Of a stretch of DNA of 8,681 nucleotides, positions 1,567 to 8,681 are shown piece by piece. The DNA lies in NCBI GenBank assembly GCA_002779075.1, contig PEXK01000019.1:1-8681 (forward strand), given 5' to 3'. The translations under genes and the position numbers were made by a program. The notes beneath the pieces were generated by a model. The model was not told where the DNA came from. It saw only the letters and a list, made by a program, of their open reading frames with translations, and searched no databases. The first letter of the stretch is position 1. Each line of letters starts with the position of its first letter. The stretch is from Candidatus Diapherotrites archaeon CG08_land_8_20_14_0_20_30_16. GTDB taxonomy: Archaea; Iainarchaeota; Iainarchaeia; Iainarchaeales; 0-14-0-20-30-16.

Positions 1567-1713
1567 GCTTTCTTTTCAAAAAAGAAAGCCGAGTGTAGAA
1601 GATTTTCCAAATAAAATCTTTTACATCCTGTCAAAAGCTCTCTTTGCAGAGCCATTTTAACACGGGGTTTCGCAAAGAAACCCTCATAATAAATAATGTA
1701 GGATAAATCCTAC
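1567..1713. other. cluster of five consecutive stem-loops (possible structured RNA, tRNA leader, or protein-binding palindromes)
   Basis: Five stem-loops in a row. h1 is 1567-1589: GCTTTCTTTT/AAAAGAAAGC, 10 bp, 3-nt loop. h2 is 1595-1624: GTAGAAGATTTT/AAAATCTTTTAC, 12 bp including one G:T that pairs only in plus-sense RNA, 6-nt loop. h3 is 1637-1652: GCTCT/AGAGC. h4 is 1665-1683: GGGTTTC/GAAACCC. h5 is 1698-1713: GTAGGA/TCCTAC. No ORF covers the region. Confidence 0.4.
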
Positions 1714-1732
1714 TTAAAAACCTACTTAAAAA
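1709..1732. repeat. perfect tandem direct repeat, 2 x 12 nt (CCTACTTAAAAA)
   Basis: Read directly: CCTACTTAAAAA at 1709-1720 and again at 1721-1732. The first copy overlaps the 3' arm of hairpin h5. Confidence 0.85.
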
Positions 1733-1830
1733 CAGTATCACTTAAATATATATATCTTGAGGAGTAATGTTTATAAGTCTTTAGCATGTAAGGGTTTTGC
1801 ATGGAATTAGCTTTAAAGAGCACTAAAAGA

Positions 1831-1838
1831 ATATAAAT
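1831..1838 (+). promoter_or_regulatory. candidate BRE/TATA (AAAAGA-ATATAAAT) for the 1875..5657 gene block
   Basis: A purine-rich stretch followed by ATATAAAT lies about 37-44 nt upstream of ATG 1875. GGTGGTGG at 1866-1873 provides SD-like GGTG. The predicted TSS near 1860 would exclude the TTG at 1842 used by the ORF track. Confidence 0.35.
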
Positions 1839-1874
1839 ACTTTGGAGTGTTTTTGTTATGGCTTGGGTGGTGGC

Positions 1875-3104
1875 ATGGTTTTAGATTTGTCTAATCAAAA
1901 AGGTTATGAAAAAACAATAGATGCAATAATTCAAGAGTTGGAAAGAGAAAACCCAATTTCTACGAAACGAATTAGCAATGAGATTGTGGATTATTGTGTA
2001 ACTAAAAATGATACAGCTAAAATCTATATTCCTGTGATAGTTTACATAGTTTACAAATCTTTGACACAAAACCACATTGTAAATTCAAAGATTTGGAAAC
2101 GCAACAAAGGAAAATTACTGCTTTTCTTTGAAAATCTTAAAAGATCTGAAGATACTGATTTCAAAAAACAATTAAACAATTTTGTATTTTTATTTGAAAA
2201 AGATGACAAAGATTTCTTTTATTATGTGAAAAACATTTCAAGAAAAGGGAGAGTAAAAGTAGGGGCAAGATTGTATTCTATGGGGTTTTCAATAAAAAGA
2301 GTTAGTGATCTTTTAGAAGTTAGCAATTTTGATTTGCAAAGTTATTTGTCAGACACACAAATGCATAATCAGAAAGTGCCAGAAAATTTATTAGTCCCAA
2401 AAATTGAAATGCTGCTAAAAGAAAGCAAAGATGTAATTTTTGATTCTGGTGCATTGATTTCTATTGGAAATGTTGGTTTGATAAATGTTTTTGAAGAATT
2501 CAAACAAAGAAATCCTGATGTAAATTTATATATGACAGAAGCAGTGCATAACGAAACAATAGATATTCAAGAAAAAGTAATAAGGTTTGGTTGGATTGGC
2601 ATACAATATGAATATTTGATTAAAAAAGGTATTTTTACTTTAATTGCAAAAGATAAAATGCCAAAGAACGGAACATTAGAAGATTTATGCAACACTTTGT
2701 TTTACACAAGATATGGAAAATTAGAGTTATTGCAAAGAGGAGAACTAGAAAGTGTTGTTTTTGCACAAAAAAACAATTGTGTTTTGGTTATTGATGAAAT
2801 AGTAACAAGATGGCTAATAGAAGCGCCATTAAAACTTCATAAATTGATGGAATCCAGATATAAAGAAAAAGTAATGTATGATAAATCAAAATTAGATCAA
2901 GCAAATGCAATGTTAAAAGAAGTGTCAGTTATTAGAAGCGTTGATTTTATAGGTTTTGCAATAAAACAAGGCTACTTTAAAAAATATGACACTTTGAATT
3001 TTAAAAAGCCATTATTATATTCTTTAAAGTATGGCGGTTGCGCTACTACTTATGAAGAAATAGATTCTTATATTGCTAAGGGTGATGTTAATGTCAAAGA
3101 TTGA
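1875..3104 (+). CDS. fusion-like protein: N-terminal helical (possibly wHTH) region + UPF0175-like HTH + COG2405/DUF3368-type PIN-like domain
   Basis: The ORF track begins at TTG 1842. The first in-frame ATG (1875) has upstream GGTG and is preferred, giving 409 aa. Residues 137-172 in ORF-track numbering (RVKVGARLYSMGFSIKRVSDLLEVSNFDLQSYLS) resemble the UPF0175 pattern a..LY..g.lS.g.aAel.gvs..eF...L. The segment VIFDSGALISIGNVGLINVFEEF...LYMTEAVHNETI resembles the COG2405 N-terminus (DsSPLIaLakIGrLdLLk.lf..i.iP.aVyeEv). The segment LQRGELESVVFAQKNNCVLVIDEIVTRW resembles GEaEaIaLA.e.nadlLLiDe..aR. The segment VSVIRSVDFIGFAIKQGYF...KPLLYSLKYGG resembles the DUF3368 tail (kviGtlGiLl.Ak.kGli..vkplld.L...G). 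All similarity is recalled from memory, not computed. Confidence 0.6.
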   Translation: MVLDLSNQKGYEKTIDAIIQELERENPISTKRISNEIVDYCVTKNDTAKIYIPVIVYIVYKSLTQNHIVNSKIWKRNKGKLLLFFENLKRSEDTDFKKQLNNFVFLFEKDDKDFFYYVKNISRKGRVKVGARLYSMGFSIKRVSDLLEVSNFDLQSYLSDTQMHNQKVPENLLVPKIEMLLKESKDVIFDSGALISIGNVGLINVFEEFKQRNPDVNLYMTEAVHNETIDIQEKVIRFGWIGIQYEYLIKKGIFTLIAKDKMPKNGTLEDLCNTLFYTRYGKLELLQRGELESVVFAQKNNCVLVIDEIVTRWLIEAPLKLHKLMESRYKEKVMYDKSKLDQANAMLKEVSVIRSVDFIGFAIKQGYFKKYDTLNFKKPLLYSLKYGGCATTYEEIDSYIAKGDVNVKD

Positions 3105-3503: not shown

Positions 3504-5657
3504 ATGGTGGCAGAAAAAACAGCAATTTTGAAAGTAATGGAAGCAGACCCTAATTTAGTAGGAAAAAAAGTTGCTGCCCTGGATAATGAAACAAGGCAAC
3601 ATTTGGGTTTGAGCCACGAAGATTATATTTTAATTAAAGGAAAAAAAGATGCGTTAGCAAAAATTTGGCCTGGCAGACCATCAGATGAAGGAGAAAGCCT
3701 TATAAGAATCGATAGCTTTACGCGAAAGAATGCTGGTGTTGCAATTGGCGATACTGTTATTGTGAAAAAAGCAAGTCTGCAAACTGCAAAAAAAGTAACC
3801 TTTGCCCCAATTCAAGAAATACACACAAAATTAGGACAATATACAAGAATGGTGAAAAAAACCTTTCTTAGCAAACCTATGATTAATGGCGAAGAAGTAA
3901 TGTTTGCTGTTTTTGGCAACCCCATTTGTTTAATTGTTCAATCAACTAAACCCAAAGGTCCTGTTTTAATTTCTGATGAAACCGAAGTAGAAGTTTTGAA
4001 TGATCCTGTTGACCCCAATACAGCAAATGTTTCACGAGTGAGCTATGAGGACATAGGGGGAATAAAAAAACAATTGACTAAAATAAGAGAAATGATTGAG
4101 ATTCCCTTGAGGCATCCAGAACTCTTTAGACGTTTAGGAGTTGAGCCACCAAAAGGTGTTTTGCTTTATGGACCGCCAGGAACAGGTAAAACAATGGTTG
4201 CAAAAGCAGTTGCAACAGAATCTGGTGCACATATAATAACAATAAAAGGGCCAGAAATTATGAGCAGGTATGTTGGCGGTGCTGAACAAAAAATAAGAGA
4301 ATTGTTCAAAGAAGCACAGGATAATGCACCAAGCATAATTTTTATTGATGAAATTGATGCAATAGCGCCGATAAGAGAAGAGGTTGCAGGGGATGTTGAA
4401 AAGAGGGTTGTTGCACAGCTTTTGAGCTTAATGGACGGTATGGAAGCACGGGGAGATGTTATAGTTATAGCAGCAACGAATAGGCCCAATTCTGTTGATA
4501 TGGCTTTGCGCAGGCCTGGAAGGTTTGATAGAGAAGTGGAAATAGGACCACCAGATAGAGAAGGCAGAAAGGAAATACTTGAGATTATGACAAGAAGTAT
4601 GCCTATGGACAGAGATATTGATTTGGATAAAATAGTTTCGCAAACACATGGTTTTGTAGGTGCTGATATAAGTGCTTTAGTAAAAGAAGCAGCTATGCAA
4701 ACAATTAGAAGAGTTTTGCCAGACTTGAATTTGAGTTCTGAAGAACTTCCTTTAGAGGAATTAGAGAAAATTACACTTGAAAAAGAAGATTTTGAAAAAG
4801 CATTGCAAGAAGTAAACCCATCTGCATTAAGAGAAGTATTTGTTGAAGTTCCTAATGTGCGCTGGGAAGATGTTGGCGGTTTAGATACAATAAAAAATGA
4901 TTTGAAGAAGATGGTTGAATGGCCACTTAAATATAGTGAAAGTTTTGATAAGGCAGGGATACCACCAACAAAAGGGATTTTGCTTTATGGTCCGCCAGGA
5001 ACAGGAAAAACAATGCTTGCCAAAGCAATAGCAAATGAATGCGAGGCAAATTTTATTTCTATTAGAGGTCCTGAAATATTTAATAAATGGCTGGGAGAAA
5101 GTGAGAAAAAAATTAGAGATATATTCCAAAAAGCAAAACAGACAAGCCCATGCATTGTTTTCTTTGATGAGATTGATGCAATTTGCCCAAGACGTCCAAA
5201 TGATACGAATCAAACGACTTACAGAGTTGTAAATCAGCTTTTAGCAGAAATTGATGGAATGAGTTCATCAAAAGGCGTTGTTTTTTTAGCAGCAACAAAC
5301 AAACTTTATAATGTTGACACTGCTTTGATGCGACCCGGAAGAGTTGATATGCTTTTGTTTGTTGACAATCCTGATGAAAAAGGAAGATTGGATATTTTGA
5401 AAAAATTGTCAAAGAATATGCAATTGAAAACCCCAACAGATTTAGAAATTGTTGCTAAAGATACAAATGAATATTCTGGTGCAGATTTGAATGCTGTTTT
5501 GCGTGAAGCTGCATTTATTGCTTTGGAGAAAGGAGATATGAAACCAACAGCTATAACTCTTGATGATTTTAAAGAAGCAATAATTAAAACAAACGAATAC
5601 AAAACAAAAACAGAGAAAGAAGATAAAAACACAGACGATACAAATTATATACGATAG
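3504..5657 (+). CDS. cdc48: Cdc48/VAT/p97-type AAA+ ATPase (N domain + D1 + D2)
   Basis: 717 aa. The N-domain motif is [25 protein letters not shown]1 has Walker A GPPGTGKT (aa 223-230, nt 4170-4193), Walker [11 protein letters not shown], pore loop MSRYVGG, and [28 protein letters not shown]2 has Walker A GPPGTGKT (aa 496-503, nt 4989-5012), pore loop NKWLGESE, Walker [11 protein letters not shown], and [19 protein letters not shown]. The family signature is unambiguous. Confidence 0.97.
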
Positions 5658-5924: not shown

Positions 5925-6279
5925 ATGGATTTAATTGTAGATGCAAATATTTTGTTTTCTGCATTAATTGTTAGTGGAAATTTTGAAGAATTTGAGAAGT
6001 ACAAAACATTGTTATTAAAAAAAAACAAATAGATCAGAATACGAATTCTATGAATTTGTATATATTTTAAAGAAAAAGATTACTCTGATAAGTAATGAAG
6101 AAACAAAACCATATCTGGAAAAAGCAAAATCAATAAGCCCAGACCCAAAAGATGTTGATTATTTTGCTTTAGCAATAAAATTAAATTGTGGTATATGGGG
6201 TAATGACAAAGAATTGAGTTTAAAACAGACTGTTGTTTTGATATATTCTACTAATGATTTAGTAAAATATTTTTTGTAG
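5925..6279 (+). pseudogene. PIN_2-type (PF10130-like) PIN-domain toxin gene interrupted by a +1 frame change in an A9 run
   Basis: The first frame from ATG 5925 reads MDLIVDANILFSALIVSGNFEEFEKYKTLLLKKNK*, with stop TAG at 6030-6032. The +1 frame is open from 6019 and reads KKTNRSEYEFYEFVYILKKKITLISNEETKPYLEKAKSISPDPKDVDYFALAIKLNCGIWGNDKELSLKQTVVLIYSTNDLVKYFL*, with stop at 6277-6279. It has no Met, so it is absent from the ORF track. The switch point is the run of nine A at 6017-6025; eight A would give one continuous 117-aa ORF. The motifs D-x-N-I-L, DP.DV.YfALAikL and W.NDK are typical of this PIN family. Confidence 0.75.
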
Positions 6280-6771: not shown

Positions 6772-6790
6772 GAGCTTTTAAGGACTTTTA

Positions 6791-6811
6791 GTTAAGTTTA
6801 TAAAACTTAAC
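6791..6811. terminator. perfect 9-bp hairpin GTTAAGTTT-ATA-AAACTTAAC, 20 nt after the bPH_2 gene stop
   Basis: Read directly. Its position suggests a 3'-end structure for the plus-strand operon. No strong T-run follows, so terminator function is uncertain. Confidence 0.3.
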
Positions 6812-6840
6812 GAAATGGCAATGAAATATATCGAAAAAAC

Positions 6841-6913
6841 AACACATTAAACAGAGTGTATAAGATTTCTGTCTTAGAGTATAAAACTTAGAACACAAGG
6901 TTCAAAGTTTTTT
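6841..6913 (+). repeat. unit A of a degenerate repeat: AACACAT ... AGTGT-ATAAG ... CTTA-GA-ACAC hairpin + T6
   Basis: AACACAT lies at 6841-6847. A hairpin forms from 6856-6864 (GTGT A TAAG) and 6887-6896 (CTTA GA ACAC). A T6 run lies at 6908-6913 on the plus strand. The unit aligns block by block with unit B. Confidence 0.5.
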
Positions 6914-6920
6914 ACTTATT

Positions 6921-6955
6921 GTTAGAAGCTCTTTGGAATACAAAGCCATTCTAAC
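6921..6955. other. two-tier hairpin GTTAGAA..CTTTG-GAATA-CAAAG..TTCTAAC
   Basis: The outer 7 bp pair 6921-6927 with 6949-6955. The inner 5 bp pair 6931-6935 with 6941-6945, and the loop is 5 nt. It lies between repeat units A and B. Confidence 0.45.
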
Positions 6956-7037
6956 ACATGATGTGAAATCTTTTACAAAGTGTCATAAGTTTTGTGTAAA
7001 TAAAACCTTAATGACACAATGTTTTTGTGTATTTTTT
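6953..7037 (+). repeat. unit B of the degenerate repeat: AACACAT ... AGTGTCATAAG ... CTTAATGACAC hairpin + T5/T6
   Basis: AACACAT lies at 6953-6959. A long imperfect hairpin spans 6980-7017 (GTGTCATAAGTTTT / AAAACCTTAATGACAC, 14 bp with two bulges). T5 (7022-7026) and T6 (7032-7037) follow on the plus strand. Confidence 0.5.
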
Positions 7038-7039
7038 AG

Positions 7040-7083
7040 TAGAATAAAATATAAAAATAGAAAAGGGTGATTTTTAATCACCC
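7040..7083 (-). terminator. hairpin GGGTGATT-AAA-AATCACCC followed by a T-rich tract on the minus strand (terminator and/or IS right-end hairpin)
   Basis: An 8-bp perfect stem (7065-7072 / 7076-7083) with a 3-nt loop. In minus sense it is followed by TTTTCTATTTTTATATTTTATT. It lies 196 nt downstream of the tnpB stop. Confidence 0.5.
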
Positions 7084-7310
7084 ATCTTATTTAAAACTTA
7101 GATTTACTTTTTTTTCTTTTTTACAGCCTTCTTTTTCTTAGCCATTTTTCATCCCTCACAATAAACACTAACAACTTTTTGTTAATTATCAGTAATATAT
7201 ACAGAATATATAAATACTTTTCTTTTTTGGATAAACATGTCAACTATCAATTAATGAATTAATCGGCTTGTAACTCTATTAGGCTACATTTGGGTGATTG
7301 ACTGCACCCT
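7050..7310 (-). ncRNA. candidate TnpB omega-RNA (reRNA) region; extent approximate
   Basis: In IS200/IS605 elements the omega-RNA overlaps the tnpB 3' end and runs to the right end. Here that interval holds a GGGTG/CACCC hairpin at 7292-7309, a minus-strand TTTATATA box at 7207-7214, and a related terminal hairpin at 7065-7083. No covariance or expression evidence is available. Confidence 0.3.
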
Positions 7311-8364
7311 GCACAAAATCAGATATACCAATTCTGGCGATGTTTCTACTTGCATTTAAATCTGCGTGTAATTCATAACCACACTCATTGCAATGGAATA
7401 GATTATTATTACGATTATTTTTATCTGTAAATCCACAGTGTGAACACTCTTGACTCGTATATCTGGGATTAATATATATTACAGATTTACCTAATCTTTC
7501 TGCTTTATATTCCAAGAAACTCATTAATTTTCTAAAAGACCAATTACCTATATTTTTTCTCATAGTTTTATTTAATCTTTTAGTTTTTATATGTTTTATA
7601 TTTTCCATAGCAAAAAGAGTATATGGCAAGTTAACTATTTGTTTACTTATTATATGATTTACATTTTTAACAAAACGGTTCTCTTTTCCACTAATTAATT
7701 TAAGTTTTCTTTTAGAGGACTTAGTGCCTTTAGATTGTAAATCACTTTTTTGTTTTTGGTATTTTCCTTTAATATTTCTTAACTTCTTTGAATTAAAGAA
7801 AATATTGTTTGATAATGTTGCAATATTTTTAATTCCAACATCTATACCTAATACTTTAATTTCTTTTTGCTTTTCTACTGGTGATTGCTCCATTTGTAAA
7901 TTAAGAAAATAATTTTTATATTTTCTTCTTATTAATTGAGCATTTGTATATTTCCAATCTTTATATTTTAAATAATAATCTGCAACGTTTAAAGGCAGTT
8001 TTAATCTACCAAACATAGTATTTATTGATATTTTTTTCTTATCAAACATTACAGAAAGACATCGTTTATCATATCTAATTGAAGAGTATTCTTTTTTTAT
8101 TGGTTTAACTTTAAATTTTAATGATTTCAACATATCGCTTGCATGGTCTCTTGCTGTTTGAACCATAGCACTAGAAAAACGAGGATATTTTTCTCTAATT
8201 AGTTTGTAAGTTCCATAATGTAATTTATTCTTATTAAATGTGTGATTTTCAAAACCATAATTAATAATCTCTTGACATATTTTGTTGTAAGTAGATACAG
8301 TAGAATTAAGATTGTCATTTTTTCCTAATTTTATTATTATGGTTGTAACTTGTTTATTAATCAC
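7279..8364 (-). CDS. tnpB: TnpB (IS200/IS605 OrfB-type RuvC nuclease, RNA-guided endonuclease family)
   Basis: 361 aa from GTG 8364; no in-frame ATG lies near the N-terminus. RuvC-I is LGIDVGIKN (D175). RuvC-II is FAMENI (E254). The zinc ribbon is TSQECSHCG...FHCNECG. RuvC-III is HADLNASRNIA (D335). Order and spacing are typical of TnpB. Confidence 0.93.
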   Translation of the reverse strand: MINKQVTTIIIKLGKNDNLNSTVSTYNKICQEIINYGFENHTFNKNKLHYGTYKLIREKYPRFSSAMVQTARDHASDMLKSLKFKVKPIKKEYSSIRYDKRCLSVMFDKKKISINTMFGRLKLPLNVADYYLKYKDWKYTNAQLIRRKYKNYFLNLQMEQSPVEKQKEIKVLGIDVGIKNIATLSNNIFFNSKKLRNIKGKYQKQKSDLQSKGTKSSKRKLKLISGKENRFVKNVNHIISKQIVNLPYTLFAMENIKHIKTKRLNKTMRKNIGNWSFRKLMSFLEYKAERLGKSVIYINPRYTSQECSHCGFTDKNNRNNNLFHCNECGYELHADLNASRNIARIGISDFVQGAVNHPNVA

Positions 8365-8427
8365 ATATATTATTTACCAGATTAAGTTTAAAAACATATA
8401 TATAGTATATTATTTAAGCAAATTCAT

Positions 8428-8447
8428 CCAACCATTGAAATGATTGG
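8428..8447. other. imperfect hairpin CCAACCAT-TGAA-ATGATTGG (candidate IS left-end subterminal hairpin)
   Basis: An 8-position stem with one C/A mismatch and a 4-nt loop. It contains TGATTG, which also occurs at 7295-7300 inside the tnpB-3' hairpin motif. Confidence 0.35.
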
Positions 8448-8463
8448 TTTTCTTTACACGAGA

Positions 8464-8471
8464 TTTATAAA
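8464..8471 (+). promoter_or_regulatory. candidate TATA box (TTTATAAA) for the 8493.. gene, with leaderless spacing
   Basis: It starts 29 nt upstream of ATG 8493, and no SD lies between. Confidence 0.4.
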
Positions 8472-8492: not shown

Positions 8493-8681
8493 ATGGCAAG
8501 AGAACCATTACAAAGAAAAAAATTTTTGAAACCTAATTATGATCCTACTGCTAAATTGTCTAGATTAAGAAGAATACCCTCTACAAGAAATTTAGCAGAA
8601 GGGGTTAAAAATTTTATCAGAACCAATCCATTACTTGTATTAAGAGCATCTAGACGAATTGAAACATCAAAGGGCCCCAAA
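8493..8681 (+). CDS. hypothetical basic protein, 5' part only (runs off the window end)
   Basis: ATG at 8493 opens 63 codons to the window edge: MAREPLQRKKFLKPNYDPTAKLSRLRRIPSTRNLAEGVKNFIRTNPLLVLRASRRIETSKGPK. It is not in the ORF track, presumably because there is no stop. It is Arg/Lys-rich and may bind nucleic acid or the ribosome, but the family is not recognised. Confidence 0.55.
   Translation, partial: MAREPLQRKKFLKPNYDPTAKLSRLRRIPSTRNLAEGVKNFIRTNPLLVLRASRRIETSKGPK

Follow-up and report, generated by a model that had tools for sequence, protein, structure and literature searches.

A tnpA-less IS1341-type element encoding TnpB and a predicted ωRNA on an AT-rich archaeal contig

In an 8,681-nucleotide stretch of archaeal DNA (the window), we identified an insertion sequence that very probably is a non-autonomous member of the IS200/IS605 family (IS1341 type), with a left-end (LE) hairpin, a putative TATA-like promoter, tnpB and an ωRNA scaffold. 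That it is a TnpB/ωRNA insertion sequence of some kind is close to certain. Judged by comparison with its relatives, the element occupies positions 8466-7239 on the minus strand, a length of ~1228 bp (~1.23 kb). An initial annotation had described a TnpB that stands alone, keeps its catalytic set and belongs to an IS1341-like element lacking tnpA in an AT-rich archaeal genome. This identification and the LE are upheld by our analysis, whereas the position of the right end (RE) and the length are revised. The features are as follows.

8467-8471, minus strand: TTTAT, adjoining the left end on its 5' side; putative TAM and target site
8419-8466, minus strand: LE, consisting of AAATCTCGTGTAAAGAAAA, the hairpin CCAATCAT-TTCA-ATGGTTGG (8447-8428), then ATGAATTTG
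8395-8405, minus strand: TATA-like box CTATATATATG, ~35 nt before the GTG of tnpB; putative promoter
7279-8364, minus strand: tnpB coding sequence, 361 aa, GTG start
7239-7343, minus strand: ωRNA scaffold, 105 nt (minimum extent), from covariance model R1
7338-7311 (A), 7309-7292 (B), 7288-7269 (C) and 7265-7248 (D), minus strand: ωRNA stems, from covariation
7302-7297 with 7244-7239, minus strand: ωRNA pseudoknot, GUCAAU with GUUGAC (transposon end), from covariation
7239-7247, minus strand: RE terminus ATAGTTGAC, last element base C7239
7219-7238, minus strand: predicted guide ATGTTTATCCAAAAAAGAAA, flanking DNA directly 3' of the scaffold

The TnpB protein

The minus-strand open reading frame at 7279-8364 is a real TnpB with an intact catalytic set. 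The RuvC residues D175 (LGIDVG), E254 (FAMENI) and D335 (HADLNASRNIA) are found in the canonical order that the initial annotation had given, with a CxxC...CxxC zinc ribbon (C307, C310, C325 and C328) between RuvC-II and RuvC-III. All seven residues are invariant in an alignment with 18 homologues. The profile matches anticipated for such a protein lie above the Pfam cut-offs, both for Cas12f1-like_TNB (PF07282; 88.4 bits, cut-off 26.3) and for OrfB_IS605 (PF01385; 48.6 bits, cut-off 30.5), and the NCBIfam model guided_TnpB (NF040570) covers residues 25-344 with 189.3 bits (cut-off 100).

An AF2 model of moderate confidence (mean pLDDT 76) matches ternary complexes of Cas12f and TnpB in Foldseek at E 1e-19 to 1e-13, the hits to AsCas12f, ISFba1 TnpB and ISDra2 TnpB having E 8e-19 to 6e-10 and TM ~0.5, and a phmmer search of PDB sequences likewise returns TnpB and Cas12f proteins. 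ISDra2 TnpB from Deinococcus radiodurans (PMC8612924; PMC10097598) has the same RuvC D-E-D residues and zinc ribbon in the same order, but it is longer (408 versus 361 aa) and only distantly similar in sequence (phmmer 1.5e-10). At E<=1e-3, 16,039 clusters at 50% identity are related to the window protein, the nearest relatives being from methanogens, Thermoplasmata and DPANN archaea. The sequence makes nuclease activity of TnpB plausible, and the allele in the window on balance probably encodes a nuclease-competent ribonucleoprotein.

Ends of the element

The ends were read from relatives, including multi-copy ones. The conserved block starts exactly at TTTAT, both in multi-copy relatives (L006 versus L007) and in 21 distinct relatives; the base preceding TTTAT is random and the base following it is variable (C16/A3/T2/G1). 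Relatives that carry tnpA read TTTAT followed by A, as does the window. TTTAT (8471-8467) is the likely TAM and a putative target site, placed, like the exact start of the LE, by comparison with relatives. The neighbouring CDC48 gene, with matches 55-72% identical, led to no empty site; its closest relatives are 69-72% identical and not syntenic downstream. A start of the LE at TCGTG (TAM AAATC) was rejected: every relative would then have its own TAM, in contrast to the unvarying TTTAT, and L067 reads TTTAT followed by AAATCTC like the window. TTTAT has been validated experimentally as the TAM of ISGst2 TnpB2 from Geobacillus stearothermophilus, where it flanks the native element and TnpB has a role in element retention (10.1101/2023.03.14.532601). 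However, this TnpB is bacterial and unrelated, and the TAM common to both may be a coincidence.

The LE hairpin proposed initially at 8428-8447 does fold, and it is kept in place among the relatives with compensatory changes in the stem. Its loop (TTCA/TTTA) is conserved too, as are the GAAGA.../GATGAA motifs on either side, and the LE is near-identical to those of the tnpA-bearing elements L067 and L070. Further inwards, a TATATAAATA block is conserved in the relatives at the position of the TATA-like box, a putative tnpB promoter within the element.

At the other end, copies from the same genome are identical through GTAGTTGAC and unrelated beyond it (Methanocrinis L026, L028, L035 and L037; L006 and L007). 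Among 72 distinct right flanks, nearly all RE ends read GTAGTTGAC or differ from it only slightly, and the similarity of the window to all relatives ends at 7239. The RE subterminal hairpin, placed by homology and covariation, is located at 7265-7248 and coincides with ωRNA stem D. It is thermodynamically marginal in the window copy: all pairs are A-T or G-T, and as DNA it folds no better than shuffled sequences (-1 kcal/mol, z 0.2). With subterminal hairpins at both ends and without terminal inverted repeats, the element has the ends of an IS200/IS605 member. The right flank begins with ATGTT, without a direct repeat of TTTAT. A TTTATC located 3 nt into this flank was considered as a second target or a tandem-insertion scar and dismissed, since TTTAT occurs in only 6 of the 72 right flanks and at no fixed place there, as by chance.

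The initial annotation had instead placed the RE hairpin at 7065-7083, which lies at least 156 nt outside the element and misplaces the end by ~160 nt; the corresponding length of ~1.4 kb is too large. The stem at 7065-7083 is strong (z -3.3) and terminator-like, follows a 13-codon open reading frame and, by its position, is assigned to flanking DNA. The expectation that conservation among other copies would stop in accordance with the proposed hairpins is borne out on the left only, because on the right it stops at 7239, unrelated to 7065-7083.

The ωRNA scaffold and predicted guide

The region 7239-7343 is matched with 87.7 bits (E 3e-21) by R1, a covariance model derived from six relatives with the window left out. 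Among 75 distinct relatives, compensatory changes are found for 43 of the 48 ωRNA pairs, and paired cells amount to 89.5%, against 28-43% in slid controls. The pseudoknot is 98.6% paired, with covariation in three of its six pairs and one G-U wobble in the window. Folding of the single sequence yields stems A-C. The final ~65 nt of tnpB also form part of the scaffold, which stops exactly at the RE. No Rfam family, including sotRNA/ωRNA RF02656 and RF02657, matches 7239-7343 even at E<=1. The RE-hairpin part of R1 also has a weak match in the LE hairpin.

The short stem C of the window corresponds to the commonest state among the relatives. We considered a damaged ωRNA, with a ~40-nt 'deletion' in stem C and a shorter C-terminus of the protein, and discarded it: most of the 75 relatives are without the apical extension of stem C, which indicates that the closest clade carries an insertion instead.

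In characterized TnpB systems the guide lies directly 3' of the scaffold (PMC10691335; PMC8612924), and we predict that 7238-7219 is the guide segment of the ωRNA. The arrangement resembles that of ISDra2, where the 3' end of tnpB is likewise part of the ωRNA, which stops at the RE, the guide derives from the flank, a pseudoknot lies beside the guide, and the 5-nt TAM is identical to the sequence that TnpA targets beside the LE, as predicted for the window. ISDra2 differs in having its own tnpA and the TAM TTGAT, compared with the inferred TTTAT here, and the window scaffold measures ~105 nt. Also similar in organization are the archaeal, tnpA-less IS1341-type elements of Halobacterium, with sotRNA/ωRNA (RF02656/RF02657; PMC12558985), and of Sulfolobus (SisTnpB1; 10.1101/2023.03.06.531077), in which a structured sense transcript covers the 3' end of tnpB, as predicted for the window. 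An AT-rich TAM, TTTAA, has been described for SisTnpB1 (10.1101/2023.03.06.531077). In contrast to these systems, the element here has no match to RF02656/RF02657 and a mesophile-like, AT-rich host.

Based on these analogies, we propose the following mechanism. The element would reside in the chromosome of an archaeon that is AT-rich and probably DPANN-like, an assignment based on the 55-72% identical CDC48 matches. A transcript covering the 3' part of tnpB may there be processed into an ωRNA with a scaffold of at least 105 nt and a flank-encoded guide of ~16-20 nt (ATGTTTATCC...). The complex of TnpB and ωRNA would cut DNA matching the guide next to a 5'-TTTAT TAM. The cut target would be the empty or excised donor site, with a predicted junction of AAACTTTAT and ATGTTTATCC, so that cutting, followed by recombinational repair, would help the element to be retained. 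The occupied locus would be protected, because TTGAC rather than TTTAT precedes the guide match there. Transposition would require a Y1 TnpA in trans, like those beside close LE/RE relatives in DPANN metagenome-assembled genomes (MAGs).

Mobility, decay and significance

The initial annotation reported no Y1 transposase in the window, and we agree: an ORF-wise Pfam scan found no Y1 or serine transposase among the window ORFs, gene calling on the 9.8-kb contig likewise gave none, and tblastn with two family-associated TnpA proteins had no hit in the window (E<=10). At the level of the family, a transposase link does exist. A Y1 HUH tnpA adjoins tnpB in two IS605-type elements with matching ends from DPANN MAGs, L070 (Ca. 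Woesearchaeota JBAZVO010000007.1) and L067 (archaeon JAZDME010000049.1). They share with the window the LE order (TTTAT followed by A..., AAAGAAAA, hairpin, ATGAATT) and the RE terminus (GTAATTGAC/GTAGTTGAC), the same ωRNA model matches them, and their TnpB proteins are 47-48% identical to that of the window. They differ in carrying a divergent tnpA of 143-148 aa between LE and tnpB, where the window has only ~55 nt. Most OMEGA transposons are non-autonomous and lack tnpA as their normal state (PMC10691335); the absence of tnpA is therefore not a distinguishing feature of the element.

All contigs read that encode a TnpB at least 90% identical represent the same locus, so that only one insertion site is known; these are short metagenome contigs, and the absence of other sites from them is weak evidence. 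Beyond the locus, the next relative of the TnpB is 67% identical. A metagenome scan with the single TnpB protein returned the same locus and two relatives at 62%, and a scan of viral contigs gave only relatives at 35-49%. The intact allele was found with 100% identity in two independent metagenomes. A sibling population carries W137* (G7955A) and F84I at the same locus, with 136-aa products on at least four contigs, which implies that loss of TnpB is tolerated. L129, a candidate second insertion site, turned out to be the same locus with the nonsense allele. Among the short contigs read there are no copies at different sites and no sign of current mobility, and we consider it improbable that the element is currently mobile in its host genome.

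The chief competitor to a functional nuclease is a stranded fossil: the same insertion sequence, which in this lineage would have inserted once, long ago, would now be neither mobile nor functional and would evolve neutrally, its allele having been sampled before breakage. We regard this as a serious possibility, though one that falls short of probable. The single insertion site without recent sister copies, the lack of tnpA on the contig, the W137* allele in other samples and the weak RE hairpin all fit such a history, as does the observation that archaea hold many tnpB genes of which few show recent mobility (PMC10691335). However, none of the seven catalytic and zinc residues has been lost, and the pseudoknot and all ωRNA helices are intact as well, which would be unexpected if the sequence had long been drifting neutrally at 28% GC. 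The identical intact allele in two metagenomes also speaks against it, and the single-site evidence comes from short contigs only. The initial description as a 'candidate active' element is too strong in view of the single site, the W137* siblings and the marginal RE hairpin.

Domestication, in which the element would be kept for the host, for example to supply or rebuild a core promoter for the divergent neighbour or for guide-directed regulation, appears very unlikely. The idea is prompted by a palindrome, TTTATAAA (8464-8471), that spans the TAM/LE junction and lies 22-29 nt before the ATG of the divergent neighbour gene (at 8493), which would be the usual place of an archaeal TATA box for a leaderless mRNA. 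Yet a divergent gene starts this close to the LE in only 1 of 21 relatives, a frequency that leaves general targeting of archaeal TATA boxes by the element unsupported as well. The relatives' neighbours are unrelated and reveal no conserved gene partner, the catalytic triad is intact, unlike in nuclease-dead domesticated TnpBs (PMC10705468) of the TldR type, and the nonsense allele of tnpB is tolerated. A miniature type V CRISPR effector (Cas12f-like, type V-F) is suggested by the top Foldseek and PDB sequence matches, which are Cas12f structures of similar size and domain order, and by a partial match to NCBIfam Cas12f2, but the probability is negligible, as that match (151 bits) is far under the 450-bit cut-off, neither a CRISPR array nor spaced direct repeats occur in the window, its ORFs do not include cas1, cas2 or cas4, and the element has ends of the IS200/IS605 type together with an ωRNA scaffold that stops where the transposon does, with a predicted guide from the transposon flank.

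Returning to the TnpB/ωRNA insertion sequence, we tentatively suggest that the window allele may be a working, naturally minimal RNA-guided nuclease of a mesophilic DPANN-like archaeon, composed of the 361-aa TnpB and a ~105-nt scaffold with four stems and a 6-bp pseudoknot, and using a TTTAT TAM; we hold this to be possible rather than probable. If true, it would be among the smaller complete TnpB/ωRNA pairs, and its ωRNA would belong to a family common to methanogens and Thermoplasmata without a match in the Rfam release searched.

As a small archaeal transposon the element is ordinary, it belongs to a known kind that is very abundant, and it changes little for biology at large, tnpA-less TnpB/ωRNA elements being among the commonest archaeal genes. 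The practical yield consists of exact ends and a covariation-supported ωRNA model with a pseudoknot for a large archaeal TnpB clade without an Rfam match, together with predictions of the TAM (TTTAT) and of the guide used by a compact 361-aa nuclease, a candidate small editor. That tnpB occurs at the same locus within a population both as an intact and as a nonsense allele bears on how such elements decay without a transposase.

TnpB and the missing transposase

The protein of the element is encoded by one ORF:
7279-8364, minus strand: tnpB, 361 aa, GTG start

In Pfam this ORF scores 88.4 bits for Cas12f1-like_TNB (cut-off 26.3) and 48.6 bits for OrfB_IS605 (cut-off 30.5), and in NCBIfam 189.3 bits for guided_TnpB (cut-off 100, residues 25-344), whereas the NCBIfam Cas12f2 model stays far under its cut-off (151 vs 450 bits). 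The RuvC residues D175, E254 and D335 and the zinc-ribbon pairs C307/C310 and C325/C328 stand where the initial annotation placed them, and none of the seven varies when the protein is aligned with 17 homologues (45-68% identity). A PDB sequence search returned Cas12f and TnpB structures, including ISDra2 TnpB (1.5e-10), and the AlphaFold2 model (mean pLDDT 76) matches Cas12f/TnpB ternary complexes in Foldseek with E-values of 8e-19 to 6e-10. The element belongs to a well-known, very abundant kind: the family comprises 16,039 representatives of 50%-identity clusters at E<=1e-3, of which a threshold of E<=1e-30 leaves 503. The TnpB proteins most closely related to this one (65-66% identical) are encoded on contigs L090 (1-7137) and L091 (1-4433), inside long same-strand runs of small ORFs. 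Pfam matches are nearly absent from these runs, PHROG gives a single match (phrog_4264, 6e-27), and a DUF8033 is present; the two contigs could represent genomes of archaeal viruses or plasmids.

The reported lack of a neighbouring Y1 transposase gene was borne out. An ORF-wise Pfam scan gave no Y1 or serine transposase match among the real ORFs of the window or in the upstream neighbour, and neither type appears in the gene calls for the entire contig (9.8 kb). A CRISPR-like repeat array is likewise absent from the window. Typical Y1 HUH TnpA proteins occur in two of about 125 related loci, where tnpA is divergent and placed between the left end (LE) and tnpB:
2498-2941, minus strand: tnpA of L070 (Ca. 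Woesearchaeota)
1574-2002, minus strand: tnpA of L067 (archaeon)

Used as tblastn queries, these two TnpA proteins have no match in the window at E<=10. The absence of tnpA is the rule rather than an oddity, because the majority of OMEGA transposons are non-autonomous and carry the OMEGA module only (PMC10691335). L070 and L067 are autonomous relatives from DPANN MAGs with LE sequences nearly identical to that of the window, and are candidate sources of a type of transposase that could act in trans.

Ends of the element

The ends were read from related copies:
7247-7239, minus strand: right-end (RE) terminus ATAGTTGAC, last element base C7239
8447-8428, minus strand: LE hairpin CCAATCAT-TTCA-ATGGTTGG

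In an alignment of 3' flanks from the nearest relatives (60-68% identical in protein), similarity continues for ~40 nt beyond the window stop codon and ends directly after ...TTACAAGCC-hairpin-RTAGTTGAC. Four copies from Methanocrinis natronophilus and two from Methanotrichaceae are identical through GTAGTTGAC and unrelated beyond it, and among 72 distinct right flanks this end, or a close variant, is near-universal while the flanks are mutually unrelated. The same-genome copies and the 72 flanks therefore set the boundary at C7239. The hairpin at 7065-7083, initially taken as the RE hairpin, does exist and is a strong stem with a T-run on its 3' side (z -3.3), but it lies at least 156 nt outside the element, directly 3' of a 13-codon ORF (MAKKKKAVKKKKK, 7104-7145, minus strand). 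This ORF has a TATA-like box ~60 nt upstream and GAGGG 8 nt ahead of its ATG, and the region (7104-7145 with 7204-7220 and 7065-7083) resembles a very small, separate unit of transcription within the IS flank. The RE hairpin of the element is marginal (-1 kcal/mol as DNA, z 0.2). Between the hairpin at 7065-7083 and the bPH_2 gene, ~290 nt of non-coding sequence (6772-7064) contain several short, imperfect, inverted and direct repeats (e.g. 6839-6869/6965-6995; TATAAAACTTA twice) and give no Rfam match.

At the left end, the hairpin at 8428-8447 that had been proposed does fold; it lies between the conserved motifs AAAGAAAA and ATGAATTTG, and relatives have a hairpin at the equivalent place with different yet complementary stems. 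Identity between the multi-copy relatives L006 and L007 begins exactly at TTTAT. In 21 distinct relatives the base 5' of TTTAT is random and the base 3' of it variable, mostly C; TTTAT was a requirement of that search, so these counts do not bear on the motif itself. The junctions read TTTAT|ATGTTCTCGGCAAAGAAAA and TTTAT|AAATCTCTGGCGAAGAAAACC in the tnpA-bearing L070 and L067, and TTTAT|AAATCTCGTGTAAAGAAAACC in the window. On these comparisons the left end starts at 8466, and we infer that TTTAT (8471-8467) is target and TAM, following the IS200/IS605 rule that the TAM is the LE-flanking target (PMC8612924). TTTAT is the proven TAM of an unrelated bacterial TnpB (10.1101/2023.03.14.532601). 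An LE start at 8466 and an RE end at 7239 give a predicted length of 1228 bp, in place of the earlier estimate of ~1.4 kb.

A palindrome, TTTATAAA (8464-8471), spans the TAM/LE junction 22-29 nt ahead of the ATG (8493) of the divergent neighbour and could serve as its TATA box, half of which would come from the element. The arrangement is not a family trait, since in only one of the 21 relatives does a divergent gene begin equally close to LE.

The predicted ωRNA

Six relatives yielded a four-stem consensus structure, in which 21 of 48 pairs show compensatory changes. The covariance model built from them, with the window left out, has a single match in the window (7239-7343, minus strand, 87.7 bits, E 3e-21). 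It also matches the tnpB 3' end, over ~90-150 nt, in 82 of 84 related loci. Rfam has no family match at this scaffold. Among 75 distinct sequences, whose alignment was fitted to the model and whose counts are therefore biased towards the structure, 43 of the 48 pairs vary at both positions, and 89.5% of cells are paired, vs 28-43% with the partners slid by 1-3 columns. Two things speak for a real signal in these sequences: the controls with slid partners, and the first alignment, which is independent.

The stem B loop GUCAAU (7302-7297) is predicted to form a pseudoknot with GUUGAC (7244-7239), the final six bases of the transposon. In relatives the two sides co-vary (GTCAAC/GTTGAC, GTCAAT/ATTGAC, GTAAAC/GTTTAC, GTAACC/GGTTAC, GTCAGC/GCTGAC); 98.6% of cells are paired, three of six pairs covary, and no shuffle reached the observed score. 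Compared with its closest clade, the window has ~40 nt fewer at the tip of stem C, which leads to an earlier stop codon and a protein tail 12-30 aa shorter. This short form is the common one, as model helices 4 and 5 are missing in 55-67 of the 75 sequences. The guide is predicted in the flank:
7238-7219: predicted guide ATGTTTATCCAAAAAAGAAA

Neighbourhood, population and activity

The neighbouring CDC48 ATPase has best matches of 69-72% identity, and its nearest named relatives are Ca. Diapherotrites/Iainarchaeum MAGs (55-57%). GC content is 22-40%, and many ORFs of the window have no Pfam match. Taken together, these features point to a DPANN-like archaeon as the probable host. An intergenic stretch (6106-6183, minus strand) gave a weak Rfam match to the C/D-box snoRNA family SNORD51 (27 bits, E 0.26, under the gathering score), with no clear C/D boxes.

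The locus is identical on a JGI contig (L002). On L129, the same locus in a sibling population from another ENA sample (3815-4225 corresponding to window 8364-7954), the flanks are as in the window, with 215 nt of common flank identical, and three SNPs fall within the element:
G7955A: W137*
T8115A: F84I
G8377A: upstream of the start codon

At least four contigs encode the 136-aa product. A metagenome protein scan found no second insertion site, and a search via the CDC48 gene found no empty site. The upstream neighbour is one 312-aa ORF in L129 (2748-3686) and is called in three parts, of 124, 105 and 30 aa, in L002 (2-893), reflecting either strain-level disruption or an assembly error.

Of the initial annotation, the TnpB identity, the residues, the absence of tnpA and the LE hairpin hold, while the RE hairpin and the length were revised. 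That the catalytic residues and the RNA helices are all intact speaks for activity; against it stand the single copy, the lack of tnpA, the tolerated nonsense allele and the marginal RE hairpin. We consider it unlikely that the element is still mobile; the tnpB allele in the window is, by a modest balance of probability, nuclease-competent.
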